From NCBI GenBank assembly GCA_963835065.1, contig CAWIEK010000016.1, positions 64,001-128,000 on the forward strand: a stretch of 64,000 nucleotides of DNA, given 5' to 3'. Shown piece by piece: positions 1,449 to 43,519 of this stretch (its first letter is position 1; every line of letters begins with the position of its first letter). The stretch comes from an uncultured Chthonomonadaceae bacterium. Lineage in GTDB: Bacteria > Armatimonadota > Chthonomonadetes > Chthonomonadales > Chthonomonadaceae. The notes under the pieces were generated by a model that was not told the origin of the DNA, did no database searches, and worked only from the letters and a program-made list of their open reading frames with translations. Position numbers and translations under genes: made by a program.

Positions 1449-3056
1449 TTACCTTGAAATTGGCTGCCATTGGCGTTCCAATCGGCGTACCAGAGCGGTT
1501 AGCGGCAGGGTCATCACCAGATAGCAGGCGGCTACGCCCAGATACAGGGTTGTGGCCGAACCCGTGTTGGCCGCGATTTCCTTGCCTGTCCGCATCAGTT
1601 CCACCACGCCGACGACGGATACCAGAGAGGAGTCTTTGAGCAGGGCGACGGCTTCATTGGTCAGGGGCGGCAGGACGCGGCGCAGGGTTTGCGGCAGAAT
1701 GATCCAGCGCATGGCGGCGGGATAATCCATGCCAAGCGCGCGGGCGGCTTCCATTTGTCCCGTATCTATACTTTCAATGCCCGCGCGGAAGATTTCGGAA
1801 ATGTACGCCGCAGCGTTCAAACTGAGCGCGACAACGCCCGACATCAGCGGGTTGAGCGACACATGCAGCGCGGGCAGCACAAAGTACAGAAAGTAAATCT
1901 GCATCAGCAGGGGCGTGCCGCGTACCAGTTCCACATAGGCAATGACCGCCGCGCGCAGGGGAACAAACGGCGACAGGCGCATCAGAGCCACGATCAGCCC
2001 GCCCGTCGCGCCGAACAGCAGCGTCAAAACCGTGATTTCCAGCGTGATTTCCGCCCCGCGCAGCAATTGCGGCCAGGCGTCGCGCAGCAGGTCCCAGCGA
2101 ATGGCTAAGGCAGAAGTTGAGGGTTGAGGGTTGAGGGTTGAGGGGTCTTGATTTTCAATTTTCGATTGCCGATTGCCGATTGCATCGGCCTTTTTTTGAA
2201 TGTCTGCGGGGATCGAGGAACCTTCGTTTTTTACTTTGTTGATGTTGGCGATTAGCGAAGTCGTTACGGGGTCGCCAATCCATTTTTCGTAGAGTTGGGT
2301 GTACGTGCCGTTTACCAGCAGCGTGTCTAAGGCGTGGTTGAGCTGCGCGGCCAGTTCCAGTTCGTTGCGGGCGGCGGCAATACCGAGATTTTCGGGCGGA
2401 AAGTCGGACGCGCCGGTCAATTCCAGGTCGGAGTAGCCGTTGGGCAGAATGTGTTTGAGGGCGGGCACATCGGCGACAGCCGCATCCGATTTGTGGTTCT
2501 TCACGTCCAGCAGGCCGTCTTGCAGCGTGTCGAACTTGCGGATTTGCGCGTCCGGCAGGCCGGCTTTTTGCAGCGCGGTCATGCCCGTCGTTTGATCCTG
2601 CACGGATACGATTTTGTCGCGCAGGTCGGCAAGTCCTTTAATGCGCGTATCATCGTGGCGTTTGGCGATCACCTGCCCGGACAAAAAATACGGGCGGGAA
2701 AACGTGTAGCCCTTCTGCTTGCGCTCTTCCGTTATGGTCATGCCGGACATAATCAGGTCGGCCTTGCGCGATTCCAGCGAACCCTGTACCGCCGTCCATT
2801 CCAGGGGCAGCCAGTTCACTTTCACGCCCAACGCCTTGCCAAGCGCGTCTCCCAATTCGATGTCGAAGCCGACAAGTTTGTCTTTTTCCTTGTACTCGAA
2901 GGGCGGGTACGTGGCGTCGGTGGCAATTGTAAGCGAACCCCGCTGCCGTATCTCCTGCCAGGCGTTCTGCGCCCGTCCCGGCAATGCCCAAATCAGAGTA
3001 AGACAGATTAGAGTCAACAACTGCCAGTGTTTCACATACTTCCGATGGTGGATCAA
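1449..3056 (-). CDS. Amino acid ABC transporter substrate-binding/permease fusion
   Basis: Signal peptide, ATDATYPPFE and GFDIEL (SBP family 3), then permease RGTPLL and EIFRAGIESIDTGQMEAARALG. Start uncertain (3035 or 3056). Confidence 0.92.
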   Translation of the reverse strand: MIHHRKYVKHWQLLTLICLTLIWALPGRAQNAWQEIRQRGSLTIATDATYPPFEYKEKDKLVGFDIELGDALGKALGVKVNWLPLEWTAVQGSLESRKADLIMSGMTITEERKQKGYTFSRPYFLSGQVIAKRHDDTRIKGLADLRDKIVSVQDQTTGMTALQKAGLPDAQIRKFDTLQDGLLDVKNHKSDAAVADVPALKHILPNGYSDLELTGASDFPPENLGIAAARNELELAAQLNHALDTLLVNGTYTQLYEKWIGDPVTTSLIANINKVKNEGSSIPADIQKKADAIGNRQSKIENQDPSTLNPQPSTSALAIRWDLLRDAWPQLLRGAEITLEITVLTLLFGATGGLIVALMRLSPFVPLRAAVIAYVELVRGTPLLMQIYFLYFVLPALHVSLNPLMSGVVALSLNAAAYISEIFRAGIESIDTGQMEAARALGMDYPAAMRWIILPQTLRRVLPPLTNEAVALLKDSSLVSVVGVVELMRTGKEIAANTGSATTLYLGVAACYLVMTLPLTALVRRLERQWQPISR

Positions 3057-3115
3057 TCCTGCCCCCTCTTGAAAATGCCTCTTTTGTCCTGAAATAAAAA
3101 GTGCTGTATCACGCG

Positions 3116-3390
3116 AAAAAATGAACCCTTTGCTCCCCACAGCCGTCTAAACAGTAGAACAACGTCTGCTATACAAACAAGAAGGCTGAACGTTGCTAGT
3201 TCCTATCAACTATCAACTATCAACTATCAACTGAGAAGGGAGGTGCAAAGCCTATGTTTCACCCCTCCCGCTCGCCCTGACGCTGCTGAGGCCACGACGC
3301 CTCTCTCCTACAACTTGACACAACGAGACATCGGGCTGGAAGCGCTGCATTGCCAAGATTTCGACGATGACTCTACATATCCTTTTTTCT
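3116..3390. repeat. Dispersed ~275 bp non-coding element, copy 1 (copy 2 at 48674-48953)
   Basis: Long near-identical stretch including (TATCAAC)4 and AAGGGAGGTG...ATGTTTCACCCCTCCCG...GATGACTCTACATA. Confidence 0.9.
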
Positions 3391-3428
3391 ACAGACCTTC
3401 ATCCTTCATCCTTTGCTTGCCCACGCGC

Positions 3429-5382
3429 TTACGGTTTTACGGTTCCGAAGAGGATGCGGGAGGGATAAGCGGCGGTGTGGTAGAGCCGGTTGGTCGCCGC
3501 GCGGTAATCGGATTCGCGGGCGGCGTAGATGTCGCAAAACGTCTGCGGGTTGCGGTCTACAAGCGGGAACCAACTGCTTTGCACCTGCACCATCAGGCGG
3601 TGTCCCTTTCTGAACGTATGGCACACGTCCGGCAGATTAAATTTCAGTTTCGTGGGTTTGTCCGGCGTGAACGGCTCCGGCTTTTCAAAACTGTTGCGGA
3701 ACTTGCCGCGCATCACGTCGGCGCGTACCAGCATTTGGTAGCCTCCCATCTTCACGGTTCCCGTTGCGGACTCGGTATCGGGCGCGTCGTCGGGGTACAC
3801 GTCTATGATTTTCACAACCCAATCGGAATCCGTGCCGGATGTGGACACAAACAGGTCGGCGGTAATCGGCCCGGCAACGGTCATGTCCTGCGCCATCGGC
3901 TCGGTTTTGTAGGTGAGAACATCGGCGCGTTCGGCGGCAAAACGCTGGTCGGCAATCATGTAATTGTTGTTGCGGCGGATGCTTTGCGACGCGGTAGCGA
4001 CATACGGCACGGGTTTGGCCGGGTCGCTGACATAGCTGTCGGCGCTTTCCGGCGTTACTGTCGCGGACGCGCCCGTTTGCAGCGCTGATGGTGGATTTGA
4101 TTGTGGATTTGATTGCAGATTTGCCGGCTTGTGAGGGTGAAGACGCAAGACGATGCTCCGCGCCGAAGTAAAGCGATTGCGCTTGCAGGGCGCGGGGCGG
4201 CCAGGCGTCGAAGGACAGCCATTGATTGGAACCGGTAGCGAACACGCGCGCTTTGGATTCCTTCCAGTCACCCTCATCTTTGAGATAATGGTTGAAGAAC
4301 GGAAACTCGATCTCGTTGCGGTAGGTGGCGGCGGTTGCGCTGCCAAATGGAATATCGCCGAACGAACTGCGATCCCCTCCCGCCCAGCCGCCGTGCGGCC
4401 AGGGACCGACAACAAGGTAGTTTGGAGTAGTGGGACTCGCTTTTTCAATGGTCTTGAAGATGTGCAGCGGGCCGTAAAAGTCTTCGGCGTCGAACCAGCC
4501 GCCCACAAGGAGCATGGCGGGCCGAACGTCTTTGAAATGCGGCAGCAGGTTCCGCGCTTTCCAATAAGCGTCATACGTGCCGTGCTGCATCATCTCGTTC
4601 CAAAACGGAACCTGATTGTGAAAATAGCGGGCGTTGGCGTTGGAAAGCGGGCCGAGGTCGAGATAGAATTGGTACGAATCGTTGGAGTCGTAGCGCAGGC
4701 CGGTGGGCAATTGGACGCGGGAAGGGCCGGTACGGGGCCAGTCGAAGCGCGAGTTGAAGTCCCACGCGAAGTTATCCAGCAGATAGAACGCGCCGTTGTG
4801 GTGTTCATCGTCGCCCAAAAACCAGTCGGCGATGGGAGCCTGCGGCGAAACGGCTTTCAGGGCGGGATGGGCATTGATGGCTCCGGCTGCGGCATAAAAG
4901 CCCGGATAGGAGATGCCCCACATCCCCACCCGCCCGTTGTTGTGCGGGACGTTGCGAACCAGCCAGTCTATCGTGTCGTAGGTATCGGTGCTTTCGTCAA
5001 TGTCCGCTTTGCCGTGTTTGCCCGTAAGCTGCGGGCGCACATTGACATAATCGCCTTCCGACATATACCTGCCGCGCACGTCCTGATACGCGACAATATA
5101 GCCGTTTTCCGCGAAATGGGACGAGGGGCCGAGCGAGTTAGGAAACGCATCAGGGCCGTAGGGAACGCTGTAGGGGGTGCGCTCCAGCAGCATGGGATGG
5201 TTCTGCGACGTATCTTTAGGCGCGAAAATGACGGTATACAGCTTCGTGCCGTCCCGCATGGCGATGGCAACATCGGTTTTCGTATAATTAGCGCGAACGT
5301 CAAACCGCCCCTGCGCCCCGGCCAGACATGGCAGCAGGCAAAGCAGCAAAATACAAATCAACTTCCAATGGCGCTTGTTCAA
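3429..5382 (-). CDS. CocE/NonD family hydrolase (alpha-amino acid ester hydrolase-like), apparent frameshift near 4072
   Basis: MRDGTKL, ERTPY, QDVRGR and WGISYPG in ORF 3685-5382. C-terminal domain SYVSDPAKPVP ... QVQSSWFP continues in ORF 3429-4574. Confidence 0.9.
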
Positions 5383-5400
5383 CGCTTCGTCCTTTCAAAA

Positions 5401-8441: not shown

Positions 8442-8453
8442 GCGCGTTTCCTT

Positions 8454-8576
8454 TTAGATATTAGGCATTAGGCATGTAGGCATTAGGCATCAGAAAAGAC
8501 ACAAAGCCAGGAAGTTCGTTCTTGCTTGTCCTTGCATCTAATGCCTAATGCCTACATGCCTAATGCCTACATGCCT
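8454..8576. repeat. (GGCATTA)n ... (TAATGCC)n inverted heptamer element
   Basis: Heptamer arrays in inverted orientation around a ~50 nt spacer; intergenic. Confidence 0.9.
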
Positions 8577-8577
8577 C

Positions 8578-9792: not shown

Positions 9793-9887
9793 TTACAAAT
9801 CAGACGAATCGCGTTCAGATTATTGCCTCTGAATATCTCGCCTGCTCCCAATGTTGAGAGCAGGGGTCGAGAGATGAGAGCTTTTCA

Positions 9888-16714: not shown

Positions 16715-16720
16715 TGATTA

Positions 16721-19273: not shown

Positions 19274-21235
19274 CTACTCCTCCCGAAGCGGCGTGGAATT
19301 GTGCGCGGCGTCCCATTGCCAGAAGTCGGGAACGCCGGGCAGTTTGTTGTCGCGCACGAACGCCAGGAACCGCTCCACGCGCTGTTCGGGCAGGTCGAAA
19401 CCGCGAAAAATCTCCGCCGACTGCTCGGATTTGGACGCCCGATCCTGCCAGAATTTGCGCATCTTCTGCTCGTAAACCAAAAATGCGCTGTAAGCCGCTG
19501 GGAAGGCCGTTTCACCCCCCTGAACCAGTAAGTTACCCAAGAACGCGGTATATGCCCCGTAAAACGCCTCCTGATGGCCTTTACGGGCATTGCTGCGCCG
19601 CGCCTTGCCCGACTTTTGCGCTGATTTGGCGTATTCCGCGCCCGCCGCCGCTTCGTACTGCAAAATTCCGCCGAAGGTCTGGATGTCGAAACGGGTCTTT
19701 TGCGCCTGCCGGTGGGCGAACGCGATCAGGTACTGCGCCCCTTCCAGGCCGAGCCGCTCCAGCACATCCTGCGCCTGCGCCAATTCGCGGGGCGTGGGGC
19801 GGGCGGTCGTGCCGGTGTGGTGGAACGTCTCGTAAAACCGCCGCGCCAATTCCAGCGCGGGAGTTTCCGCGGACGGGTCCAGGAGGGAGGAGGGAGGCAC
19901 TGTCTCAGCCATAGGTTCGGCGGCAGTGGTTTCAGCCGCAGGAGTTTCCCCGGCGGTAACTGCATCGGCAACGGTTGCATCCGCTGTGATTGCGTCCGCT
20001 GTGATTGCGTTGGCAGGGGTTGGCGCAATGACCGGCTGCGCGTCGGGGGCCGGTTCCGTCCATGCGTCCATTTCGGCGGGGGGTGACAGGAACACAGGTT
20101 CTTCTACCATCAAGGGCAATGTGATTTGATCGCCCGCTTGTTGTCCCAATGTTTGCTCAGTTGCCTGTCCGTCCGCTGAAGGCGTTGCCGTCAACTGCGC
20201 GGACGCTGCGTTTTGCGCGGATGTGGATTTTGCCGATTGCCGTTCCGTCGTGGCTGTTTCCGCCGCAAGCCGCTGTGACGCTTCCAGCGCGCTGCGCTCG
20301 GCTTCGCGCCGTTTGCGGGCATTGACGCCGGGAAACGCGAACGCAAGCTGCTCGTTGCGGGCTTTGGAGCCGGGAGTGCAAAGCATGATCCAGTCGGGGC
20401 TGCCGTCGCTGTCAGTCGTGGCCTCGTACTCCACGCCCGTGATGTACCCGGAGCGCAAATGGGGACGCAGAACTTTGTACATCTGTTTTTTCATGTGGTC
20501 AAAATCCGTGCAGCGAACCTGCGTGGAGAGGGCGCAGTATTCCGAATATACCAATCTTGCGCGTTGATTATATTTTAACGCGGGCAAAATCTGATAACTG
20601 ATAATTTCATAAAAACGCTGCTCGGAAGGCGCTAGGTCGCGCAGGTAGTCGTAATCCAGCGGACGCAGCAGGGCGTTGTTAAGAACATCTACGTAGATGT
20701 CGTTGAGCAGCAGGTACACGGCGTCGGCTTTATGGCCGTCCGGCAGCAGTTCGCCGGTGAAGATCACGCTGTAGCGGGAAAACGCGGCTTCCAGCGACCG
20801 CTCGGCCTTATCCGTCGTTCGGTAGGTGATGCGGGCGTTGATAAACGCGCTGGCGTTTTGCAGCAGAGCCTTCTTGACCGAGTGCGTATTTTTCTCGCCG
20901 GCCAGAACCTGCGTGGCGACTTCGCGCAGGCTGCCCAGCCGAATCAGTTTGGGCACGGGCTTGCCGGCTTCTTCAATGCGGCGGTTGATGATGATGGTGT
21001 CCAGCTTGTAGGCCAATCGTCCGGGCGGGCCGTAGCGGCTGTTGTACGAAACCTCCCAACTCAGCACCGTCGCGCCATGTTCGTCCTTGCGCTTGATTTC
21101 GATGCGAACGCCGTCTTTGGTGGACAGGTTGTGGATAGGATAGCGCGACAAAGCGGTTTCGCTGCGAATGATTTCCAGCGGAACCAATTCGGCTTCCAAT
21201 TCCGGGGTTTCCGTGCCAAAAAGAGCCAGATCCAT
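19274..21235 (-). CDS. Plasmid-type replication initiator protein (putative)
   Basis: SETALSRYPIHNLS, YGPPGRLAYKLD, RPLDYDYLRDL..QRFYE resemble Rep initiators; the gene lies between iterons and parAB. Confidence 0.72.
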   Translation of the reverse strand: MDLALFGTETPELEAELVPLEIIRSETALSRYPIHNLSTKDGVRIEIKRKDEHGATVLSWEVSYNSRYGPPGRLAYKLDTIIINRRIEEAGKPVPKLIRLGSLREVATQVLAGEKNTHSVKKALLQNASAFINARITYRTTDKAERSLEAAFSRYSVIFTGELLPDGHKADAVYLLLNDIYVDVLNNALLRPLDYDYLRDLAPSEQRFYEIISYQILPALKYNQRARLVYSEYCALSTQVRCTDFDHMKKQMYKVLRPHLRSGYITGVEYEATTDSDGSPDWIMLCTPGSKARNEQLAFAFPGVNARKRREAERSALEASQRLAAETATTERQSAKSTSAQNAASAQLTATPSADGQATEQTLGQQAGDQITLPLMVEEPVFLSPPAEMDAWTEPAPDAQPVIAPTPANAITADAITADATVADAVTAGETPAAETTAAEPMAETVPPSSLLDPSAETPALELARRFYETFHHTGTTARPTPRELAQAQDVLERLGLEGAQYLIAFAHRQAQKTRFDIQTFGGILQYEAAAGAEYAKSAQKSGKARRSNARKGHQEAFYGAYTAFLGNLLVQGGETAFPAAYSAFLVYEQKMRKFWQDRASKSEQSAEIFRGFDLPEQRVERFLAFVRDNKLPGVPDFWQWDAAHNSTPLREE

Positions 21236-21412
21236 GGGGTTAATCCTCAGCAAAAATTTCAACACACACACTCTGCCCTCGCGCGCGCATACGCGAAGTG
21301 TGTGTGTATTTAGAGTCTAAGAGTCGTATTAAGAGTCTAATAGTTAACGGAATTTTCAAAGGCGATTTTATATGCTTTCCGAGAAGGAAATGGTGATTTT
21401 AGATACAAGTGG

Positions 21413-21602
21413 TCGTCTCCCGAATTAAGGCGATTCGTCTCCCGAATTAAGGCGCCTCGTCTCCCGAATTAAGGCGATTCGTCTCCCGAATTAAGGCACC
21501 CCTCCAAAATGAGGGGCTGCGTCTCCCGAATTAAGGCGCCTTAATTCGAGTTCAAAACCGCCTTAATTCGGGAGACGATTGCCAAATATCCCGAATTAAG
21601 GC
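21413..21602. repeat. Iteron array / putative replication origin
   Basis: CGTCTCCCGAATTAAGGC four times in tandem at exact 22 bp period (units at 21413, 21435, 21457, 21479), a fifth at ~21520, an inverted copy at 21559-21578 and a partial one at 21589; AT-rich flanks. Confidence 0.88.
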
Positions 21603-22366: not shown

Positions 22367-23302
22367 ATGACGGCGGAAACACAACATGAGGGCAGTACCA
22401 ACGGTGCAAACACAAACTTGCAGCAGTTTTCTTCGCAACTCGCGGCTATCGCGGCACAGGCGGCGAACAGCATTGTGCGGGTGGATGACGGCAGTCGCTT
22501 GACGGCGACGGGCTTGATCTGGTCTGCCGACGGCCTGATCGTCACCACGTCGCATGGCGTGGAGCGGGATGAAAACGTCACCATTGAGCAGGCAGATGGA
22601 ACCACGCTGCCGGCCACAATCATCGGGCGCGACAATGAAAGCGACATTGCCCTGTTGCGCGTCACGTCGCAAAACCTGACCGCCATACAGCCCGCTTTTG
22701 AGGAAGAGACGCAGATCGGAAACCTCGTTCTGGCATTGGCGCGGCCCGGACAGGCGGGGTTGCAGGCCACATTGGGCATCATCAGTTCGCGGCAGGACTC
22801 GCAAAGGAACGGCAAAGCAGAGTATATTCTCCATACGGACGCTGTCCTGTATCCGGGTTCTTCGGGCGGGGCGCTTGTCACTATGAGCGGGCGCGTGGCC
22901 GGCATGACGAACCTGCTTTTCGGACGAGGCAAGGGCATTGCGGTGGGAACGTCTGTTGCGGCGAACGTCGTGGAAGCCCTGCTTGCGGGCGGCAAGACAC
23001 AGCGCGGCTATCTCGGCATCAGCACACAGCAGGCTCCCCTCCCGGCCAATCTGCGAACAAGCCTTTCTCTGGCGCAGGAAAACGGCCTGCTGGTCGTGCA
23101 GGTGGAACCGGGAACCGGCGCGGAAAAGGGCGGCTTGTTCTTAGGTGACGTTCTGCTGTCCATCAACGGCCAAACCGTCTCGGACGTAGACACCCTGCGC
23201 CAACACCTGCGCCCCCTGCAAGCCGGGCAAACCATAGACCTTCAAATCCTGCGGGGCGGGGAGTTGCGGGACATGCAGGTGGAACTAGGCATTAGGCATT
23301 AG
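22367..23302 (+). CDS. S1C (HtrA-like) serine protease with PDZ domain
   Basis: Catalytic triad TTSHGV, DIALL, PGSSGG; PDZ RGYLGI...GDVLLSING. Confidence 0.92.
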   Translation: MTAETQHEGSTNGANTNLQQFSSQLAAIAAQAANSIVRVDDGSRLTATGLIWSADGLIVTTSHGVERDENVTIEQADGTTLPATIIGRDNESDIALLRVTSQNLTAIQPAFEEETQIGNLVLALARPGQAGLQATLGIISSRQDSQRNGKAEYILHTDAVLYPGSSGGALVTMSGRVAGMTNLLFGRGKGIAVGTSVAANVVEALLAGGKTQRGYLGISTQQAPLPANLRTSLSLAQENGLLVVQVEPGTGAEKGGLFLGDVLLSINGQTVSDVDTLRQHLRPLQAGQTIDLQILRGGELRDMQVELGIRH

Positions 23303-23395
23303 GCATTAGGCATTAGGGAAGAAGACAGAAGACATCTTGTGATGCGGAGTAGCCTCTATTCAAACCTCCTCTCTAATGCCTAATGCCTAATGCCT
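23286..23395. repeat. (GGCATTA)n ... (TAATGCC)n element supplying the protease stop codon
   Basis: The protease ends ELGIRH* inside the left arm. Confidence 0.9.
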
Positions 23396-25565: not shown

Positions 25566-26311
25566 AAGTTGAAAAATTAATGGAAGCGGAACGAACGCGC
25601 GTCAGGCTGCTGATGGAAGCCCTGGCCGATGAGAAGGTGTCGGTACGCTGGAACGCGACGCGGGAATTGGGACGATTGGGCGACGCGGGACGGGACGCGC
25701 TGCCGCTTCTGACCGCGCTGCTTGACAACCGGGACGGCACGACGGCTTTGTGGGCGCGGGTGGCGATTGCGCGGATCACGGGCGACTTTGGCAGTCATTT
25801 GCCGGTTTTAATTGACGTGCTGCAAACCAAGACGCGCGTGTTTCCCGGCATGGCGGCGGCGGCGTTGGGGGAATTGGGCGCGGCAAGCGCTCCGGCTGTG
25901 CCGGCGTTGATACAGGAACTCTCCGCGCCCAATGCGGATGACCGATGGAGCGCGGCGGGCGCGTTGGCGGCCATCGGAAGCGAAGCGCGGCAGGCCGTTC
26001 CAACACTCGCGGATACGCTGGTACGCGATACGGACGAAAAAGTACGCTGGTACGCTGTCTACGCCCTGTCGGAAATCGGCCCGGACAGCGCTCCCGCCAC
26101 GCCTGCCCTGATACAAGCGCTCGACGATGTAGATGAGGATGTAAGGGGCTACGCGGCCCGCGCACTCGGCAACATCGGGCCGTCCCTGCTATCGCAGCAA
26201 ACCGACGTAACCGCGCTCATTGCCCGCTTGCAAGAACTGCTGCCCCGCGAAGAAGGAACCGTCCGCGAAGAGATGGAGCGGACGGTGGAGGCATTAGGCA
26301 TTAGGTATTAG
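25562..26311 (+). CDS. HEAT/PBS lyase repeat protein
   Basis: Repeated VR..AA.ALG.IG...AVPAL...L.D units. Start GTG 25562 or ATG 25580. Confidence 0.88.
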   Translation: MKVEKLMEAERTRVRLLMEALADEKVSVRWNATRELGRLGDAGRDALPLLTALLDNRDGTTALWARVAIARITGDFGSHLPVLIDVLQTKTRVFPGMAAAALGELGAASAPAVPALIQELSAPNADDRWSAAGALAAIGSEARQAVPTLADTLVRDTDEKVRWYAVYALSEIGPDSAPATPALIQALDDVDEDVRGYAARALGNIGPSLLSQQTDVTALIARLQELLPREEGTVREEMERTVEALGIRY

Positions 26312-26410
26312 GCATTAGAGAAGAAGGTAAAAGACAGAAGATAACAAGATGCAGAAAAGCCTGTGCGCTAAATCCCTTTACTAATGCCTAATGCCTAATG
26401 CCTAATGCCT
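26290..26410. repeat. (GGCATTA)n ... (TAATGCC)n element supplying the HEAT gene stop codon
   Basis: The HEAT protein ends EALGIRY* inside the left arm. Confidence 0.9.
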
Positions 26411-28933: not shown

Positions 28934-29028
28934 GAGTGCAGCTCCATAAGGGAGTGACCAGACAGTTCATAGTTGATAGTTGATAGTTGATAGTAATGCA
29001 GGAACTACGAACTTTTAGCGCCTAGCCA

Positions 29029-31055
<2,027 letters not shown>

Positions 31056-31059
<4 letters not shown>

Positions 31060-31346
31060 TGTCTTAAGTTTCTTTGCGTCTGAACTCTGTTCAGGGACGT
31101 CTGCTCTGGACGCCACTCAGCGAAGGCTACTAGACCGCTGGTTATCAGCAACCCTGTTAAGAGCAGGGCCACGTCAACAACAACAGTGCGCAGTCGCATA
31201 TTCTCATAAAGGGAAGAAGATGGCGAGAAAGTGCTAAGATAGGCAACGCTGCCTACAAGTGCTACCACACCGCTCCACACTAACGCCCAAAGAAAAAACC
31301 GGATGGTAACAGGCAATGTCGAGGCTGTCTCAGGCTTATTATTCAT
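31056..31346 (-). CDS. Small two-TM hypothetical protein (lower GC)
   Basis: Two hydrophobic helices; AAGGAGG upstream; ATGA overlap with the next gene. Confidence 0.65.
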
Positions 31347-32108: not shown

Positions 32109-35100
32109 TCACCCGGAAATGTTTACAGATAGGGAGGAACCCTCCTGTTCGGATAGCGCTTTATCATTCGGCAAAATACTACAAGTTTGCCGAAGCGGAC
32201 GGATGCCGCGCTCGAATAAGGCGGGCGTGACGTAGCGCGTATGGTAGATTTGCCAGTCTTCGGCATGGCGGCAATAGACCGGATCGTCTTCCAGATTTCC
32301 CGGCGGCGTGTCATAATCGGGCAGGTCGTGGGCGGGAAGCGGCAGCACGGTTTTGCTGAAGGTCGTGTTGATGTTGCCGTCCTTGACCCAACCGTCGCCT
32401 ATCAGGACAAAATCGCGCGTCCAGCCGTCGCGGGGCGGGGGAAGCGCGGCAAAGGTCAGGCGCATCTCGTCACCCGCGTTCATAATCACGTACCGGTCGT
32501 CTACGGTTTGCAGCAGTTCGCGCACATCGCCGAAGCGCGTGTGAAAGCCCGTCAGGTCGCGCCAGGGTTGCCCCTGTCGTTCTACGGGTTCATAGGCGCA
32601 TGGAAGTTCCGGGGAACTGGCGTCGGCAGCCTCAATTTTGGAAAAGCCGCGATATTGCAAATCCGCCGTTAATGCGGGCAGGCGCGTGGTTTCGGTTTCC
32701 ACATCCGGTAGCTCCAGCGCCCATTGCAGCGCGTCCCAATACACTTCCAGATTGGTGCACAGTCGCAAACGCCGGGGCGCATCCGCTTGAAAACATCATC
32801 AATGCGTAATACGATGGTCTTTAGTTTCCCTTCCGGGAAGCCTAAATCCTGCTTGCGCGTTACCCAATTTCCGTCCGCGTCCTGCGTTTCGATGGAAAGG
32901 CCGACCGGAACCGGATGATTACCCTGTGACAAGGCGACATTGATGCTGCTGTTTGTCGGCATCACCCACCCATGCGCGATCAGGTACAGCGTTCCTTCAC
33001 GGGGAACTTCGTCTCCAAATTCCAGTTCTACCCAGTGGTCGCGGGTCACGCCCCGATACGCGCCGGGAGGGAAATTGCACACATGCCTGCCATCGCGTTC
33101 GCGTACAATGTCGGTCACATCATTGCCGTCATCGTCCCACGCCCGCGTCACCGGCAGGGGCGGCGTGGTCACATACACGCGCAGGGGCGGAGCCGGAACC
33201 GCAAACCGCTCATCACAAAAAATGTCTGTGCCAACCGGATGGTCTACCGCCATCAGCGACAAATGATCAAAGAAATGCGTTTCCCACAATTCGGCGGTAA
33301 TACGCAAGTCATAGATCAGAGGGAACAGGGAACAGGAAACAGGGAACAGGGAAGAATGTTGCGTACTGTTCCCTGTTTCCTGTTCCCTGTTCCCTACTCG
33401 TGGTACAAGCTGCTCCCCCCGTATCTTGACCCAATCTTCCGTCATTTGGATGCCCGCTGTCTCCTGCGCGTTGATTTTCAGGCCCAGGGGCGAGCGCCAG
33501 ATGCAGTCGGTGACGAACTCCATCTCCTCGCCGTTCCAGGTGAACAGGAAGGGACAGGAGTTGTTGAGGCGGTGGTTGAGGCTGAGAATGGCATTGGCTT
33601 TCAATTCAAATTCGCCACGAACGTCGCCGTTGGGCCACAGGATGCGAACCGCGTCCAGGTTGGGATACGCGCCCAGGCCGAAATGAACGGAAGGACTTGT
33701 AATCAGTTGTTTCTGGTAGATCAAGCCGGCGCGGGCTTCCAATTCGCCGCCGATGCCGAAACTGTTGATGCGCTTGTTAAGTTCCGCCGCGATTTTACCG
33801 GCGCGATGCTGAGAAGCGAAGACTTCCTTTATTTCGTCGGCGCGGGGGCGCAGGGTTTGCCAGAAATAGTTTTGCGTTCCCTTGTTGGTCAGGATGACAG
33901 CCTGCCCCTGCGCGTTGACGCCGAGCAGATCGAGCCGTCCATTCCCGTCCACATCCGCAACCGCGCCAATACCGGCGGGGATAGGGGAGGGGAGGGGCGT
34001 AAACGAGCGGCCATCGCCCATCCACACCTGCGCAATTGTGGGCGAGGAAGCGATCAGATCGGGAGCGCCGTTATTGTCCACATCGGCCACGAACAGGGCC
34101 GCTCTGCCGGGTGTTAGATCGTGGGGCGGATTGCTCCATGCGGCCAGGGGCGCGATTTCCCACTGGCCGCTGTTCTTAGGGTCGCCGCTCCGCTTGTCGG
34201 ACAGGCGTACAAGGCTGCCGTCCTGCCGCAGCAGCAGGAAATCCAGCCTGCCGTCGTGGTCGGGATCGCCAACAGCAAGCGCGGCCACCGTTCCGACTTC
34301 GGACGGAAGTTTTCTTTCCGTGAACTTGCCCCAACGCTCGTTCCTGAAAATGCGCAATTTGCCCTTATCATCCACAAGGGCGGCATCGGGAGCGCCGTCG
34401 CCGTTCACGTCCGCCCACGCGAACGCGCGCAGATTGTGAACGGTGGAAAACAGTTCCACGGGCTTGAACGTGCCGTCGCCATTGCAGCGTAAAATCAGGG
34501 GCGGGCCGGATACGCGGGCGAGCAGTATATCCAAATCGCCGTCCCCGTCATAATCCAATCCCCACGCGCCGCTATACGCGCCATTCAGTACAACGGCAGG
34601 CAGTTTCATTTGCGCGGTAGCGTCCGTAAACTTGCCATCTGCGCCCTGCGTGTAGTAGCGCATGCCGCCCGCGCCCGCCATAAAAATGTCGGAGCGCAAA
34701 TCATAGTTAAAATCCAGCGCGAGTACGCCATTCGAGCCTGGAGCAATCGAAATCGCGCCCCCGGTAATCGAAATCGCGCTGCCGGGAAACGGCAGCGTAA
34801 CCCCCGCATACGCCGGAGCCTCAATATGCAATGCCCGCCCATCCGCCCACATCGGAAACGGAGCCATCAGGGTCGTCGGCGTACCTTCGTTGGACAGCCA
34901 TAAAGCGCCTGTGTAGATTGAGGGTTGAGGGTTGAGGGTTGAGGGATCTCACTTGTGGATTGTGTCTCCTTTTCTCCTTTTCTCCTTTTCTCCTTTTCTT
35001 CTGTTCCCTGTTGCTCCGCGAACGTGACCGTCATATCCGGGGGAGCGGGGGTGTCGGCGATGTTGGGGAGGACGAGAAACTGTTCCAGGGGCGTACCGAC

Positions 35101-36107: not shown

Positions 36108-36881
36108 ATGACTGAGGAGAATTCGCGCGGCAGAGCCGTATTGTATCCTTTTGGGCTGGCAATCGTGTTGCTGGTGGTGTGGCATACGCTTTCGGGAAGC
36201 GGCAGGCTGCCGCAAACGATTTTCCCCACGCCGTTTCAAGTGTGGCAGGGGTTTGTGGCGCAGTGCCGCAATGGGCTTTTGTTTGAAGACATTACCACGT
36301 CGCTGTTTCGCGTTGCGATGGGGTTTGTGCTGGCCGTTACGCTTGGCGTCCCGCTCGGCCTGCTGATGGGAAACGTTGTCGGCGCGCGTCTGACCCTGCT
36401 GCCGTATGTCAACTTTTTCCGCAGCATTTCGGCTATTGCCTGGCTGGGATTTGCCATTGCCTGGTTTCCTCTTGGCGACCCGGCGACCATTTTCCTGATT
36501 TTCCAATCCGCGTTCTGGCCGCTGGCGTTGGGAACTCTGGCGGCGGCATCCGGCGTTCCCTCCATTTATTACCGCGTCGCCCGCGATTACGGGTTTACGC
36601 CCTTCCAGAAGGTGACGCGCATTACCTTTCCCGCCATTCTGCCGCAACTCCTTTCCAACCTGCGCATTACGATGGGATTGGTATGGACAGTAATAGTTCC
36701 CGCTGAAATGGTGGCCGGGCGAAGCGGGCTTGGCTTCCGCATACAGGATGACCGCAACGGCCTGCGCGTGGATTTGCTCGTGGTTCACATGATTGTCATT
36801 GGCATTATCGGCGTGATTTTGGATCGCCTGCTGGTACGCCTGACGCGCCTGCCGAACGTGAGGTGGGGCTATGAGCGCTAA
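36108..36881 (+). CDS. Nitrate/sulfonate/taurine ABC transporter permease
   Basis: [31 protein letters not shown] (SsuC/TauC-like). Confidence 0.9.
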
Positions 36882-37702
36882 GGCATTGCGCGTAGAACAG
36901 GTATCCCGCGTTTTCGGCAAACTGTCCGTGCTGGAAGACATCTCCCTGACCGTCGCGCCCGGCGAGTTCGTGGCTCTCGTCGGTCCGTCCGGCTGCGGCA
37001 AAACCACGCTGCTCAACCTGCTGTCGGGCTACGACCTGCCCTCTTCCGGCAAAATCGAACGCCCGCCCAACGTCCGCATGGTCTACCAACAGGACGGCCT
37101 TCTCCCCTGGCTGACCGTGCGGCAGAATGTGGAGCTAGGGGAGGGGGAAGAAAAGAAGAAGAGAAGAAGAGAAGAAGAGAAGACGGAGAAGCAGGGAACA
37201 GAAAGAAATGCTGAACGCGGAATGATGAATGATGAATACAATGCAGCATCCCATTCATCACTCATCACTCATCACTCATCATTATCTGTCCCCCCAACAC
37301 CCAACACCCTCCTTTCCCTTGTCGGCCTGGAGGAGTTTGCGGACTCGTATCCGTATCAGCTTTCGGGGGGGATGCGGCAGCGGGCGGAACTGGCGCGGGC
37401 ATTGGGCGGGTGATACCGACCTGCTGCTGCTGGACGAGCCGTTTTCCGCGCTGGATTACCTGAACCGGCTGCGCCTGCGGCATGAACTCGCCCTGATTTT
37501 GCAGCAGCGTCCTACCCAAACCGTTCTGGTGACGCACGATATTGAGGAAGCCTGCCAACTCGCGGATCGCGTGTTGGTGTTGTCCGCGCGCCCCGCCCGT
37601 ATCCAATGTGAAATACCGATTGGATTGCCCCGCCCGCGCCCGCCTCTGCATCCTTTAGTAGTGGAGGCCAATCAGCGCGTGTTGGTGGAAATGGGGTTGT
37701 GA
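36871..37702 (+). CDS. Nitrate/sulfonate ABC transporter ATP-binding protein, apparent frameshift near 37405
   Basis: [21 protein letters not shown], then [11 protein letters not shown] and VTHDIEEA in the next frame; carries a repeat-derived in-frame insertion. Confidence 0.9.
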
Positions 37703-37704
37703 AG

Positions 37705-37817
37705 ATATGAGATATAGAGATAAGAGATAAGAGGCACAGGCTTGTCAAGACGCCAGCCATTCGCACTAGCGCAACTCTTATCTCTTATATCTTATCTCTT
37801 GTATCTCTATATCTATC
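37705..37817. repeat. (AGATATG/AGATAAG)n ... (CTTATCT/TATCTCT)n inverted heptamer element
   Basis: Inverted degenerate heptamer arrays between the ABC ATPase and the tnpB-like gene. Confidence 0.8.
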
Positions 37818-38325
37818 ATGAAACAAGTAATCGTGCTGAAATTAGAACCGACAGCGGCGCAGCAGCAGTCGTTATTGACGACGATGCAGGCGTTCAATCA
37901 GGGCTGTCAGTATGTGGGCGAACTGGCCTTTGCGCATCGGCTCGCCAACAAAATCGCGCTTCAGCCGATGGTGTACCACGAACTGCGCGACCGTTTTGGA
38001 CTGTCTTCGCAAATGGCCGTGCGGGCGATCAGCAGCGCGTGTGAAGCGTACAAGACGGATCGAGACGCCGCGCCGCAGTTCGATGCCTATGCGCCCATGA
38101 TTCTGGATGCCCGCCTGCTGTCCATCAAAGGCTTGACGGATGTATCGCTGTTGTGTTTGACCGGGACGGCAATTGATTCCCTTTCGATTTGTGCGCTATG
38201 CGCCTGCCCGCCCGGATCGTATCGCGGGGCAGGCGGATTTAGAGGCTGTGGAAGGCGCGTTTTATCTGTACGTGCATATTGATTTGCCGTCCGCGCCGCC
38301 GGTAAGCGATGCGGAAATTATATAG
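37818..38325 (+). CDS. tnpB: N-terminal half of TnpB-like (IS200/IS605/IS607) protein, lacking RuvC; apparent frameshift near 38163
   Basis: LKLEPT..Q...L..TM.AFN..C, YHELRDRFGLSSQMAVRAI, and after the shift GQADL...GAFYLYVHIDLP, then a stop at 38323-38325 before any GVDxG motif. Confidence 0.75.
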
Positions 38326-38336
38326 AAGGAAAAAAT

Positions 38337-39708
38337 ATGCGAATCAAGAAGAGGCTGTCAGCGCTGCTGCTGTGCGGACTTTGCATCGGCGTGACGCGGG
38401 CACAGGGGCAATCCGCGTTGAAGACAACAGAAGCCGATGCGAACCGCGTGGCTGCCGATGTTCAGGCGGAGGCGATTTGGGACGGGCGCAAGATGGTTCC
38501 ATTTCACGCGCTGGACAATCCCAAAATGGTGAAAGCGGAACAGGCCGACTTTCTGGACGATGGCGAGTACGTGCTTGCCATGACCATCAATGGCGAAGCG
38601 AGGGCGTATCCCACGCGCTTTGTCTGGTGGCATCATTTCGTCAACGACCATACGGACAAAACCGGGCTGGACTATCCCGCGTTTGTCGTGACCTATTGCA
38701 GCGTGTGCAATACGGGCGTTCGCTTCGATCCCCGCGTGGACGGGAAGCCGCTCCTGTTCGACTTCTATGGCCTGTACAACGGCGTGGCCGTGATGAGTGA
38801 CCGCGATACGGGAAGCGTGTGGACGATTGTGGAAGGCCGGGCGATAAAGGGCGCTCGCGCCAATCAGCGTATGAAGACGGCTCCTTTACTCGATACGACA
38901 TGGGGCGAGTGGAAGCGCCTGCACCCGGATACTCTCGTGATGTCGCCGGACAACGAGTACAAGCGCTGTTTATCGCGGCAAAGACAAGCCGGAGCCGCGC
39001 GACTACGATCAGTTTCCCGCGCCCTTTTTCGAGCCGACCCTGACGCGCCGCGACAAGCGCCTGCCTCCCTTTGAAAAAGTGCTGGCGGTTCGACTGGCGC
39101 AGACGGAACCAACAACGGATCAGAAACCGGTTCCGAACGGGGATGCCGCCGCTAAAGACACTGCCAACAAAGATACGGACGCTGCCGACAAGAACGCGGG
39201 CGTGAAGGATACCAGTGGCAAAGATGCCAATGCCGCCGGTAAGGATGCCCTTGCCAAAGATGCCGGCGACAAGAACCAGTCGGCGCAGTCCACAGCCCCG
39301 CCGGAAAAATGGCTAACTCGCGCCTATCCCATTGCCGCGCTGAAAGCCGCCAAAAGCGTTGTCAACGATATGCTGGGAAACACGCCCGTTGCCGTCTTTC
39401 TGGAACCCAATTCCACAACCGCAAACGCGGTATCAAGAGTTTTGGACGGCAAAACGCTGACGTTCGAGTCCCGCGAAGAAAACGGCAAAACATTTATCGT
39501 GGATAAAGAAACGGGAACGCGCTGGAGCATCGAAGGGGTGGGGGAAACCGGCCCACTCGCCGGCAAGTCCCTGCCGCGCCTCGACTGCCACCTCAGCCAG
39601 TGGTACGGCTGGGCCGCCTACTATCCTGACACCACCATCTTCGGGCGTACCGACCCGCCGCAAACGGAGAAGGCAGGAAGACAGAAGACAGAAGGAAATG
39701 ATGAGTGA
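38337..39708 (+). CDS. Secreted DUF3179 domain protein, apparent frameshift near 38970
   Basis: NGEARAYP, HHFVND, VTYCSVCNTG, GLYNG...DRDTGSVW, TWGEWKRLHPDT; C-terminal WYGWAAYYPDT. Confidence 0.85.
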
Positions 39709-39795
39709 TGAGTGATGAATGATGAACAGAATCCTCATTCATCACTCATCACTCATCACTCATCATTATCTGTTCCCCCAACACCCATCACCCAT
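39675..39795. repeat. (ATGAGTG/ATGAATG)n ... (CATCACT)n inverted heptamer element
   Basis: Supplies the stop of the DUF3179 gene (…KTEGNDE*). The right half closely matches 37253-37305. Confidence 0.88.
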
Positions 39796-39810
39796 TTATG
39801 GAGCCGCCGC

Positions 39811-40110: not shown

Positions 40111-40150
40111 CCGTTCCGAATGATTCGGAAATGGGGAGAGGAGAAGACCT

Positions 40151-40801
40151 ATGCCGGAGATTTCCTTCCTTGCAGGAGAAAACACTCGAACAGGCTATCT
40201 CGCGGTGCCCGAAGGGGGCAGCGGAGCGGGCGTTCTGATGCTGCACGCCTGGTGGGGGCTGACGCCCTTCTTTACACAGGTCTGCGACCGCATGGCGGAA
40301 GCAGGCTTTGTCGCTTTCGCGCCGGACTTGCATCACGGCAAAACCGCCGCCACCATAGAAGAAGCAAAGCAGATTCTTGCCCGGAGCGACTCTCAATCCG
40401 TTCATGCGACCGCTCTGGCCGCCCTTGACTTCCTGCGCCGGCATCCCACTGTGAGCAGCAGCCGGTTGGGAGCCATTGGGTTTTCCATGGGAGCCGCTTT
40501 TGCTTTAGATCTCCACTCCGATGTTCCCGATGCCTTTGCCGCAGTCGTCCTGTTTTACGGACTGCCGGATGCCGATCTCACCCACCTCCCGACACCCGTT
40601 TTAGGACATTTCGGCGAAGAGGATGAATGGGAACCGATAGAGCAGGTAAAGCAAATACAGGGCGACAACGTGACCATCCACCTCTACTCCGGGGCAGGGC
40701 ATTGGTTTTTTGAAGAGGATCGCCCGGAACACTTCCGCCCGGAAGCCGCTGCGCTTGCCTGGGAGCGCACCCTGTCTTTTCTTCACGCGAAGGTGAGTTA
40801 A
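40151..40801 (+). CDS. Dienelactone hydrolase family protein
   Basis: HAWWGL, GFVAFAPDL, GFSMG nucleophile motif, YSGAGHWF. Confidence 0.93.
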   Translation: MPEISFLAGENTRTGYLAVPEGGSGAGVLMLHAWWGLTPFFTQVCDRMAEAGFVAFAPDLHHGKTAATIEEAKQILARSDSQSVHATALAALDFLRRHPTVSSSRLGAIGFSMGAAFALDLHSDVPDAFAAVVLFYGLPDADLTHLPTPVLGHFGEEDEWEPIEQVKQIQGDNVTIHLYSGAGHWFFEEDRPEHFRPEAAALAWERTLSFLHAKVS

Positions 40802-40817
40802 TCTTCGGCTGAAAGCG

Positions 40818-40927
40818 TCTCCCAACAGGCGCAGCATTTGCGTCTTGCGGATGCGGCAATCTTCCTACAGAGTTGCGTCCGCAGGATGCTTGTACTTTCC
40901 TGCCGGGTACTTTCAGTACCCGGCCAA
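40818..40927. repeat. CGTC-type palindromic repeat element, copy 1 (copy 2 at ~48963-49100)
   Basis: TCTCCCAACAGGCGCAGCATTTGCGTCTTGCGGAYGCGGC...GTTGCGTCCGCAGGAYGC plus a GCCGGG..CCCGGC hairpin. Confidence 0.85.
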
Positions 40928-40962
40928 TTGGAATTTAAGTGGCATGGACAGGCTCCTACGAG

Positions 40963-41316
40963 TTATGTTTGTCCCGTATAAAACCGCAGGATGGCGGCGC
41001 GTATCATTTCCGGGTCGGCCAGTACTGGCTTTATGGTGCAGCGGCTGGCGAGACGAACCTCATCCATTGCTGCTGTGTCACCGGGGTCGGCTACTGCGAG
41101 CCAAAGTATGGTGGCCTGGCGGCGCAGAGGCAGCACGTTATGGCGGGCGGCGATGTCATGTGGAATGCTCGCCAACGCCGCCGCTTCCGGCTTGAACTTG
41201 GTCAGATTGGCAAAGGGAACACCTAATTCCTTCGCCTTTTCCTCATAATAGGCTGTACCATATTCCTCGCGCGCGCGTTTCAGAAAATTGTCGTAGTTGT
41301 TGTCTTCATCGTCCAT
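40963..41316 (-). CDS. Stand-alone GspE/PilB N-terminal (T2SSE_N) domain protein
   Basis: LGVPFANL...IPHDIAARHNVLPL...LWLAVADPGD...IRAAILRFY. Confidence 0.8.
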   Translation of the reverse strand: MDDEDNNYDNFLKRAREEYGTAYYEEKAKELGVPFANLTKFKPEAAALASIPHDIAARHNVLPLRRQATILWLAVADPGDTAAMDEVRLASRCTIKPVLADPEMIRAAILRFYTGQT

Positions 41317-41380
41317 GATATGGCCTCCGCGCCGCCCGCTTCCACGCCGTTTTTTGCCGACACTTCAGACTAACTACCGA

Positions 41381-43519
41381 TTACGCGCCGAAAAAGTTGT
41401 AGGTGGGCGTGTTGAAAATCAGGCCGAACAACGCCCATACGCTGCCCATGACGCAATCGCCCAGGATCAAGCCTAAAAAGAACGGCAGAAACCACTTGTA
41501 CAGGCGCAGTCCACCGTAGCGCATGGTGACGCCCTTGACAACCCACGCAATCAACAGGGGCAGCCACACCAGATGAATCGCCCACGAGGACGCAAGCGCG
41601 TATCCAATGGGATGGAACGGAAAGCCGTAAAAGCGCACGCGCATGGCGAACAGTCCTAATGTGGTTGCCAGGCCGACGCCCATTGCCGCAGCCGCGCCGG
41701 TGTTAGGACGGCTGTCCAGAGTTCCGCCGGTCCAGCTTGCGGTTCGGGTAAACGCCTGCTGCGCGTGTCCGAACCCCTGCGCGAACTTGGCCGAAGTTCC
41801 CAGCGCGTACGCCTGATGCTCGAACGCCCAAAACGCGCTGAAACTTCCAATCACGGTTGCCAGCATAATCGCCACAAGCATCCGGCGCGAGTTCATGCGC
41901 TTTAGATGCGCCATTTGCAGAGCTTCCAGATCAACGGGCATCGTATCGCTGCGATGGGCGCGCGTCAGCGCGAAACTGAACGTAAAGAACGCCAAATCCG
42001 GCTGCCGAAAACTGTTTGCCGACAGCAGGCGCGGCAGCATGGCATCCGGCCCCATAAAGTGAAAATCGTGCAGGGGAGCGCCCAATTCCGCCCGGATGCG
42101 CGTAATCACCGTGATGGTAGGCAGGTAAATGGCAAAAAACAAACACGCCACCCACCACGCCACCTGCGCCGCCAAACAAAACGCCACCAGCCCCAAAAGC
42201 CCTCCGAACAACCCCAGCAGCGCGGCGCGATCCGTAAGGGCTTCAGTTGATAGTTGATAGTTGATAGTTGATAGATGGCTGTCTTCTGTCTTCTCTTCTT
42301 CTCTTCTCCTTTTCTCCTTTTCTTCCCCTCTCCATGCCCTGCGCCAGATCGCCGCATACGTGCGCCTGCCCGTGTACAGGTAGAAGGCGAACAGGCCCAA
42401 AATACTGCCGAAACCCTGCTCCTTGATATACGGAAAATCGGGTGTGGCGTCCCAGGCCATTGCGCTGGAAATGACCACCTGCGCCTTCCAGAACAGGAAG
42501 AAGAACCAGCAGGAAAACAGCAGGTCGAGCGGCAGCAGGTAGCCTAATCCAATGACGAGCGGGTAGAACGTGACGGGGAACCAGTCAATCGCGCTCCAGG
42601 GCTTGGCGGTGAACAGCGGTTTCAAGTCGGTCACGCCCAGGGGAAGCATGGGCAGGGAGGGGTACAGGTACGCCAAACCGTTCCACAGGCTGAGAAGGGC
42701 GGAAATGGCAAACCCGGCCCACATCAGGCGATTGGCAAAGAAGGCAGGTTCGCGTGGAGTGTTTGCGGCGTTCGATGCGAGCGCGTTCGATGCGAGCGCG
42801 TTAGAAGCGGGCGAGTTGGAAGCGGGCGCGTTGGAAGAGGATGATTTGGAAGCGGGAAGAGTAGGGGAGGAATGGAACGCGGGTGGTGGATCGGTCATTT
42901 GCAGGGGAAGCCAGATGATGGGAAACGTGAGGCGCTCCTGATCCGCCCATTGACGCCGCACCAGAACGTTGATGCAGTTAGCCGTCCACAACAGCAGCGT
43001 GAGAAACCCCGTCCACGCCAGCATGGGAACGATCCAGGCGCGCAGAACAGCGGCCTGATAGAACGTGGAATTGCCCAAATAATGCCCGCGCAGAATGTCC
43101 CGATCCCGCACTACAAGCCAGCCGGGAAAAGCGTCGAGAAAATCCGTCCAATGGTTTGTTTTGCCGAACCACGCGCCATGCGGAATAATCTGGCTGAGAA
43201 TGCCCGCGCCGTCCAGCCCCGCCAATCCCGTCGAAATGGCAAGCATGGTATAAACAGTGAGAAGTTCGGCCTGTACCAACGCCCATTTCGGCGCGACCTT
43301 GCGGCAAATGGCGTTCAATCCGATAAGCACGAACAGCGCGAAAACTACGTTTGCGAACAACGAAAGGGTGGATGGATACGGCCCGAACATCACGCGCTCC
43401 TGCCGCACCATCCAAAACGCATTGAACGGAATCATTACCGCGCCAAGCAAAACGGCGCGAAACGTGATTTGCCCGCTTGAGTGTTCTGCTACATTTTCTA
43501 ATGAAGATGTTGCCGTCAA
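41381..43519 (-). CDS. Polytopic membrane protein, DUF6785/DUF6784-like (putative peptide transporter)
   Basis: RRQWADQERLTFPI, IGLGYLLP, TRIRAELG, PFHPIGY, RYGG.RLY...PFFLGLILG. Confidence 0.75.
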   Translation of the reverse strand: MTATSSLENVAEHSSGQITFRAVLLGAVMIPFNAFWMVRQERVMFGPYPSTLSLFANVVFALFVLIGLNAICRKVAPKWALVQAELLTVYTMLAISTGLAGLDGAGILSQIIPHGAWFGKTNHWTDFLDAFPGWLVVRDRDILRGHYLGNSTFYQAAVLRAWIVPMLAWTGFLTLLLWTANCINVLVRRQWADQERLTFPIIWLPLQMTDPPPAFHSSPTLPASKSSSSNAPASNSPASNALASNALASNAANTPREPAFFANRLMWAGFAISALLSLWNGLAYLYPSLPMLPLGVTDLKPLFTAKPWSAIDWFPVTFYPLVIGLGYLLPLDLLFSCWFFFLFWKAQVVISSAMAWDATPDFPYIKEQGFGSILGLFAFYLYTGRRTYAAIWRRAWRGEEKEKRRREEEKTEDSHLSTINYQLSTEALTDRAALLGLFGGLLGLVAFCLAAQVAWWVACLFFAIYLPTITVITRIRAELGAPLHDFHFMGPDAMLPRLLSANSFRQPDLAFFTFSFALTRAHRSDTMPVDLEALQMAHLKRMNSRRMLVAIMLATVIGSFSAFWAFEHQAYALGTSAKFAQGFGHAQQAFTRTASWTGGTLDSRPNTGAAAAMGVGLATTLGLFAMRVRFYGFPFHPIGYALASSWAIHLVWLPLLIAWVVKGVTMRYGGLRLYKWFLPFFLGLILGDCVMGSVWALFGLIFNTPTYNFFGA

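Follow-up and report, generated by a model that had tools for sequence, protein, structure and literature searches.

Heptamer-repeat tracts inside genes of a Chthonomonadaceae bacterium and their probable origin as arms of a dispersed palindromic element

How can tandem repeats of seven nucleotides, of the same families that lie between genes, stand inside protein-coding genes without breaking them? The question is raised by a 64,000-nt stretch of DNA (the window, G000:C16:64001-128000) from the genome of an uncultured Chthonomonadaceae bacterium (G000; 8.0 Mb, 57% GC, 71 contigs, 92% complete). A first-pass annotation had pointed to seven such tracts, in frame within at least five proteins, and had proposed either an active mosaic-repeat system that writes new loop sequence into proteins or tracts that are skipped or removed at the RNA level. 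We consider it probable (about 0.6) that the tracts are the arms of a dispersed palindromic element, found in intergenic DNA, in rRNA genes and in frame within proteins, and that they are likely translated and likely derived from cassettes in which such arms enclose a gene of the PF05635 family.

Seven tracts inside genes of the window

All seven tracts, with the peptides attributed to them, were confirmed, and over the whole genome exact period-7 tracts of at least 21 nt (hereafter arrays) number 1330, in 68 families, against none in the triplet shuffle that set the chance level. The description as 7-nt repeats holds for these arrays, while several of the seven tracts are partly made of octamers (AAAAGGAG, AAGAAGAG); octamer arrays number 123 in the whole genome. 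Sites 1, 2, 3, 4 and 7 have open, stop-free frames with homology to orthologs on either flank, as had been claimed. Site 6 is open through the insert in a gene that is broken farther downstream, and site 5 is off by one base as assembled. Clean net insertions with respect to orthologs, of 17 to 40 amino acids (aa), were found at sites 2, 3, 4 and 6.

Site 1 (2116..2183, minus strand) combines AATCGGC with CCCTCAA arrays and lies in the linker between the domains of an amino-acid ABC substrate-binding protein-permease fusion (SBP_bac_3 + BPD_transp_1; 1449..3140, minus strand). Here the tract is a replacement with no net insertion (87 aa against 75-91 aa in seven family orthologs), and the ortholog in G001, the congener used as main comparator, ca. 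70% identical at the protein level, has an octamer-like tract in its linker. Sites 2 and 3 share one host, an FG-GAP/ASPIC (CRTAC1-like) gene (29029..31116, minus strand), in whose N-terminal part a pair of indels (30803, 30948) is likely an assembly artefact. Site 2 (29284..29393, minus strand) is a mosaic of GGGAAAA, GGGAACA and AATCGGC arrays that brings the segment to 83 aa versus 49-53 aa in nine family orthologs, i.e., 34 aa more than the usual loop of the family; G001 has 62 aa there and carries the first module alone (a GKGKKEKGE tract, +13 aa), and in a near-identical strain the spacer is longer by six bases. Site 3 (29856..29922, minus strand), a mosaic of GGGGTCA and CCCAACA, measures 64 aa versus 45-47 aa, a gain of 17 aa against 11 of 11 orthologs. 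At site 4 (33320..33395, minus strand) a GGGAACA / TGTTCCC inverted pair forms a perfect RNA stem of 30 bp (z -11), and the segment has 36 aa, compared with 11 aa in 84 of the 94 measured homologs (+25 aa).

The remaining three sites are more complex. Site 5 (34917-35011; arrays at 34918..34999, minus strand) joins the AAAAGGAG octamer to CCCTCAA arrays at the junction of TPR and FG-GAP parts, and the two open reading frames (ORFs) that meet here are one gene in G001. Site 6 (37147..37309, plus strand) lies within an ABC ATPase gene (36871..37702, plus strand) and is composed of the AAGAAGAG octamer followed by GAATGAT, TCATCAC and CCCAACA, the GAATGAT stretch being shorter than 21 nt and stop-free; it extends the segment to 78 aa, where 86 of 100 measured homologs have 38 aa (+40 aa). 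The frame is broken ca. 95 nt downstream of the insert by one extra base (near 37405-37410), which is likely an assembly error; the close relatives among those listed read through this position uninterrupted. Site 7 (42245..42325, minus strand), a mosaic of an octamer, AAGACAG and TATCAAC in a DUF6785/DUF6784 membrane protein (41381..43519, minus strand), lengthens a variable loop between helices (40 aa; of 120 homologs listed, 97 were measured, and 44 of these have 20-25 aa). In the predicted model of this protein the fold is kept (predicted template modelling score, pTM, 0.91); within the insert, the charged half is predicted to be a helix and the remainder a low-confidence loop. The same protein has a second insert of ca. 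40 aa (42768-42856), derived from a 15-nt repeat (ASNALASN) and not from a heptamer, which is absent in G001 and of low confidence in the model.

Architecture, reading frame and hosts across the genome

The arrays are made of about four copies of a 7-nt unit, in excess over chance, and only 31 of the 1330 exceed 34 nt. They group into 1039 elements, a density of 130 per Mb, compared with 16.5 per Mb over 2.73 Mb (about 41%) of G001; one unit followed across 41 genomes had 340 matches here, 7-51 in five others and none in 35. The basic intergenic form is a palindrome with a G-rich arm, a spacer of ca. 55 nt (mostly 40-70 nt) and a C-rich arm. Among 448 elements with two arrays, same-family pairs were inverted in 224 cases and direct in 6, and in 478 of 625 multi-array elements the G-arm came first and the C-arm last, the reverse order being found in none. 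Between co-directional genes the upstream stop codon ends from -20 to +10 nt from the element in 195 of 254 cases, and intergenic as well as rRNA copies fold as long stems.

An element was called intragenic when both of its flanks matched one and the same G001 ORF, a rule adopted to avoid circularity. Near-identical stretches across contigs C25/C37, C27/C29, C28/C53 and C1/C31, which suggest duplicated assembly overlaps, were taken out before counting. By this rule 117 of the 1039 elements are intragenic, 87 in frame and stop-free, 7 in frame with a stop and 23 frameshifted. Five duplicates were then removed, together with 23 elements whose flanks failed a coding-model filter (4 in frame and stop-free, all 7 with stops and 12 frameshifted), many of them intergenic hairpins matching shadow ORFs. 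In the resulting set of 89 in-gene elements, 78 are in frame, none of these 78 with a stop, and 11 are frameshifted; one-third would be expected in frame without constraint. Random control sites were in frame in 137 of 140 cases and frameshifted in 3. Of 618 frames of intergenic elements only 91 are free of stops, and in the reciprocal test, started from G001, 13 of 14 cases were in frame without a stop and none was frameshifted. By a coding model, 188 in-gene elements are open, and 68 of the 78 defined by orthologs are recovered in this way (both tests share the model), from which we estimate that ca. 200 genes are affected. The absence of TAGGCAT and AGTAGTC from open frames follows from the definition of the classes and was discarded as evidence.

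The strand rule anticipated for units that contain a stop was borne out, i.e., they are read on their stop-free strand, and on the sense strand they appear only in stretches shorter than 21 nt. Among deviant GGATGAA arrays, 13 of 15 have a single two-base change that removes the stop, and 11 of those 13 stand in open frames. Complementary arms are present in 34 of 143 multi-array in-gene elements as opposed to 208 of 250 co-directional or convergent ones. Most in-gene copies are mosaics of non-complementary arms in a fixed order, with G-arm modules ahead of C-arm modules in every listed cross pair. Since removal from the mRNA would lift the constraints on both frame and stops, translation is the likely reading, with the in-gene tracts probably forming new surface loops.

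Compared with G001, 45 of the 78 in-frame sites gain at least 7 aa, 23 are neutral and 10 are shorter. The same loops appear to be hot spots: G001 has an array of its own at 19 of the 78 sites (2 of 149 controls), and in homologs of the proteins with sites 4, 6 and 7 the loops are filled by other repeat families, as seen by eye from the peptides. The net insertions, the strictness with which modules are ordered and the occupation of the same loops by different families in relatives all support the part of the earlier proposal in which mosaic repeats write new loop sequence. That the system is active has only indirect support. A single intergenic AGTTGAT arm (28964..28994) lies in a segment (28956-29037) that is absent from related strains, where run X1 has 14 other bases and X3 the same joint, and the two 16S rRNA gene copies differ by an insert.

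The hosts, named from 67 G001 orthologs, belong to many Pfam families and are functionally unrelated, including topoisomerase I, methionyl-tRNA synthetase (MetRS), 1-deoxy-D-xylulose 5-phosphate (DXP) synthase, CarB, UvrD and 2-oxoglutarate dehydrogenase subunits. The MetRS gene (C49; L273:406-2745) is single copy, with an open frame, and its insert takes the place of ca. 9 residues of a solved homolog. Two repeat-derived stretches can be distinguished in this protein, one in the catalytic domain (+38 aa with respect to G001) and another in the linker before the C-terminal domain.

rRNA inserts, PF05635 cassettes and competing explanations

Arms of the same kind are found in rRNA genes, at G000:C51:114802-121114 (L190), C37:1-1340 and C49:338082-341304. 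There are five inserts, two heptamer hairpins in 16S and three repeat inserts in 23S. The second 16S copy is without most of the 3' insert, and G001 is empty at the same 16S site. Both 23S copies carry a stem with AGTAGTC arms as terminal inverted repeats, at a position that, from the flanking landmarks, we take to be helix 45; G001 has a different heptamer family there. The AGTAGTC arms that form this insert also surround one of the PF05635 (S23p) four-helix-bundle genes of the genome, and all three of these genes lie between an inverted G-arm and C-arm, whose families abound in gene-less elements as well. In relatives, 16 of 17 PF05635 genes have inverted arms, with many different units, and across phyla 46 of 80 homologs have arms scoring beyond the 99th percentile set by 600 control genes. 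A PF05635 ORF is absent from the rRNA and in-gene copies and present in the three cassettes elsewhere in the genome; a 100-sequence profile run over ORFs of at least 80 aa for remote or decayed copies found these three known genes only. Many homologs of the four-helix-bundle gene of contig C8 have a C-rich arm whose start falls inside the final codons of the ORF, and almost all the arms, whatever the phylum, resemble AGGAGTC/AGAAGTC. Three of three genes of PF13366 (a nuclease fold, presumably of the GxxExxY type), at C19:8329-8673, C39:76631-76981 and C3:174084-174431, are bracketed by inverted arms with units of ca. 9 nt and, by eye, look like a parallel type of cassette; in the window, a gene-less element at 394-537 has inverted arms of ca. 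9-nt units resembling those of the C19 gene. Y1 transposases (4 matches) had no element within 900 nt, a test that covered this transposase family, and Y1 transposases and two reverse transcriptases were rejected as movers, with no arms around them.

A possible course of events would be as follows. The short elements, likely derivatives of armed cassettes, would be tolerated where pairing of the arms hides them in RNA, so that gene-less copies could spread to transcribed sites at which the insert loops out. Events in coding DNA would survive only if in frame, free of stops and located in tolerant loops, and arms with stops would disappear, be shortened or be exchanged through recombination or gene conversion with other copies, leaving ordered mosaics of non-complementary arms. 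A loop that already holds an arm might then act as a landing pad for more. More tentatively, the S23p/Avd-like proteins could be the trans-acting factor of a new class of mobile element, each clade recognizing its own heptamer arms and driving the copying and rewriting of gene-less derivatives. In this lineage it would amount to a genome-wide loop generator acting on ca. 200 proteins through ordered, stop-repaired modules, and would also explain rRNA intervening sequences and bacterial heptamer repeats; we regard this as doubtful at present.

Several results weigh against our main reading. Frameshifts are in excess at the elements (11 of 89 against 3 of 140 controls, p=0.003), which may reflect either errors of assembly or genuine breakage; the assembly has single-base indels with respect to contigs of other runs, and these bear on any frame count. 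At 33 of the 78 sites there is no net gain, the G001 linker being similar or longer, so many tracts overwrite loose loops rather than add length. Linkers of equal length in orthologs, named by the first-pass annotation as grounds for giving up the idea, were thus found at site 1 and at these 33 sites genome-wide, while sites 2, 3, 4 and 6 have clear insertions. No target-site duplication was visible at 15 clean borders, judged against a comparator as distant as G001, and the borders resemble replacements of 0-8 codons. Spacers are clearly homologous only inside the AGTAGTC family, those of most families being mutually unrelated. Sharing of junctions between modules is equally common for intergenic (714 of 2336) and in-gene (303 of 878) cases, so that coding-adapted modules are not singled out, and junction sharing was rejected as proof of coding-specific modules. 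As for the cassettes, a strict exact-repeat test found matching arms at only 27 of 80 PF05635 loci (mean with shuffled partners, 11.8), a comparison weakened by the single unit family common to these loci. Three PF05635 genes stand against more than 20 arm families; no cognate gene was found in the 92%-complete assembly for the abundant TATCAAC, TAGGCAT and GGATGAA families, and no PF05635 gene was found in G001 or G015, both of which bear arrays.

Much of this would suit the strongest alternative, which we nevertheless hold to be clearly less probable. It requires no dedicated mobile system, the arrays growing by polymerase slippage and template switching from chance seeds in loose DNA and being made uniform by gene conversion, with the four-helix-bundle genes as passengers and the inserts still translated. 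The lack of target duplication, the replacement-like borders, the unrelated spacers and the many arm families without a cognate gene agree with it, as do variant units mirrored in both arms of 38 of 242 elements (a count inflated by picking the register with the best match). An origin of heptamers by slippage was already proposed by Mrazek et al. 2007, according to the summary in PMC4679880. What it would not predict is the limit of ca. 34 nt, the one-way polarity, the way elements start at stop codons, the recurrence of a few units at hundreds of unrelated sites, the homologous spacers of the AGTAGTC family or the arms around PF05635 genes in many phyla.

An explanation in which positive selection, beyond tolerance, keeps the inserts as charged or flexible loops, as regulatory RNA stems or for phase variation by unit slippage seems unlikely. 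Repeated recolonization of the same loops, the frameshift excess and intergenic stems placed exactly between stop codon and ribosome-binding site (RBS) could be read in its favor. However, most homologs have no insert at all, and where there is one its sequence and length are free to differ among close relatives; besides, the hosts are unrelated in function, and a single-copy MetRS is a poor target for an on/off switch.

Excision of the tracts from mRNA, or their bypass by the ribosome, is very improbable. RNase III cleaves RNA without rejoining the ends, and at sites 1 and 2 folding is no better than that of shuffled sequences. Precise removal would relieve the constraints on frame and stops, yet 78 of 89 elements are in frame, none of the 78 with a stop, and the in-gene copies, as ordered mosaics with complementary arms in only 34 of 143, make translation far likelier than removal; this half of the earlier proposal is not supported for mRNA. 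The long stems of site 4 and of intergenic and rRNA copies would fit excision, and so would the RNase III gene present in the genome, an enzyme that excises intervening sequences from rRNA in other bacteria (PMC4990558). Finally, the idea that the tracts are artefacts of an error-prone assembly, for which its single-base indels and duplicated stretches might speak, is largely refuted by contigs of other runs that carry arrays adjoining the coding flanks at sites 2, 3 and 4 (the whole insert being spanned by no listed contig) and by similar modules at the same loops in independent assemblies of relatives.

Relation to known repeats and other features of the window

Rickettsia palindromic elements (RPEs) are, according to PMC10969869, palindromes of about 100-150 bp that lie between genes and in frame in unrelated proteins, with a conserved peptide per family and 44 copies in total. 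In-frame insertion in unrelated genes, a feature common to RPEs and intragenic MITEs (miniature transposable elements with inverted repeats), is found here as well (78 of 89). As for the hairpin, complementary arms occur in 208 of 250 co-directional or convergent elements and in 34 of 143 in-gene ones, most in-gene copies having lost it; ca. 200 genes are affected, and instead of a conserved sequence or peptide for each family the inserts are variable, ordered mosaics of tandem 7- or 8-mer arms. MITEs and REP-RAYT systems (repetitive extragenic palindromes with their associated transposase) have a cognate transposase with the same ends, which was not found here for Y1, and no target duplication was seen at the 15 clean borders compared with G001.

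Short tandemly repeated repetitive (STRR) heptamers are known from filamentous cyanobacteria. Homologs of a window protein carry the labels Chthonomonadaceae or Armatimonadetes, so the host is not a cyanobacterium and does not share this feature of STRR hosts. Closer counterparts are the G-rich heptamers of Xanthomonas and Nostoc (PMC4692102) and the TAACTGA repeat of Beggiatoaceae (PMC4679880). These prefer four units, form inverted pairs, place the G-rich strand after stops and the C-rich strand before starts, and are read in ORFs on the stop-free strand, with one case in a surface loop of the RNA polymerase beta' subunit. In all four respects (copy number, inverted pairs, stop/start polarity and stop-free reading) the arrays described here are alike. 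In contrast, the published cases involve one or a few units, mostly intergenic, whose in-ORF copies sit at protein ends or in hypothetical proteins, and the passages searched mention no link to a four-helix-bundle gene (PMC4692102, PMC4679880); here, more than 20 families share one architecture and stand within conserved domains at scale.

The 23S intervening sequence (IVS) of Coxiella, at helix 45, encodes S23p, has heptamers before the ORF and ends in a terminal stem of 28 bp that RNase III cuts (PMC4990558). IVSs of this type, in Coxiella and Leptospira (same source), resemble ours in terminal inverted repeats, heptamers beside a PF05635 ORF and helix-45 location; they differ in that our rRNA copies are ORF-less, that cassettes with the ORF lie outside rRNA and that operons and coding sequence hold most of the copies. 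In a full-text search, which takes in few subscription journals, neither in-frame heptamer mosaics on a genome scale nor PF05635 cassettes outside rRNA were the subject of any paper. New in this genome are the scale, a non-circular test of frame, the ordered grammar of modules and the presence of the same arms in proteins, in operons, in rRNA and around a gene. Non-coding repeat DNA would thus be becoming protein sequence genome-wide, in a single-copy aminoacyl-tRNA synthetase among others, under rules of frame, strand, order and stop repair. Three things described separately, namely heptamer repeats, rRNA intervening sequences and a PF05635 family without assigned function, are joined in one genome, which makes the origin of bacterial heptamer repeats testable. 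In practice, such inserts create spurious motifs common to unrelated proteins and inflate alignments and gene calls.

Outside genes, the window holds palindromic elements with TAGGCAT arms at 8460..8576 (TAGGCAT / ATGCCTA, the two arms having an 8-nt variant unit in mirror image), 23286..23395 (between co-directional genes, ending just before the RBS), 26289..26410 and 57593..57691 (between a stop codon and the next RBS). Another, with GATAAGA / TCTTATC arms (37703..37814), starts at the stop codon of the ABC ATPase gene, and an element at 45070..45202 has GGGTGTC / ACCTGAA-type arms. Two mosaics were found on the plus strand, one (39668..39795; AAGACAG, GAATGAT/GAGTGAT, TCATCAC and CCCAACA) running from the end of a DUF3179 gene into the ORF that follows, the other intergenic (61294..61387; GGGAACA, TATCAAC and CATCCTT) with the same junctions as in-gene inserts. 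Single TATCAAC arms, also on the plus strand, lie at 3203..3232, where this C-rich arm directly precedes an RBS-like sequence and an ATG, and at 48764..48793. No Rfam family was found in the window. Single-base indels with respect to contigs of other runs or to homologs, at 30803, 30948, 31588, 32788 and near 37405-37410, make it likely that several split or truncated ORFs of the window are assembly errors. Directly after the armed element that follows the ABC ATPase gene there is an ORF of 154 aa (37818-38282), with no Pfam match, which we presume to resemble the N terminus of TnpB. Direct repeats of 22 bp (21413-21541) upstream of an ORF of 665 aa (19274-21271) look to us like the iterons and replication initiator of an integrated element, and a protein with TIR, NB-ARC and TPR domains (57708-60326) is a candidate defence sensor.

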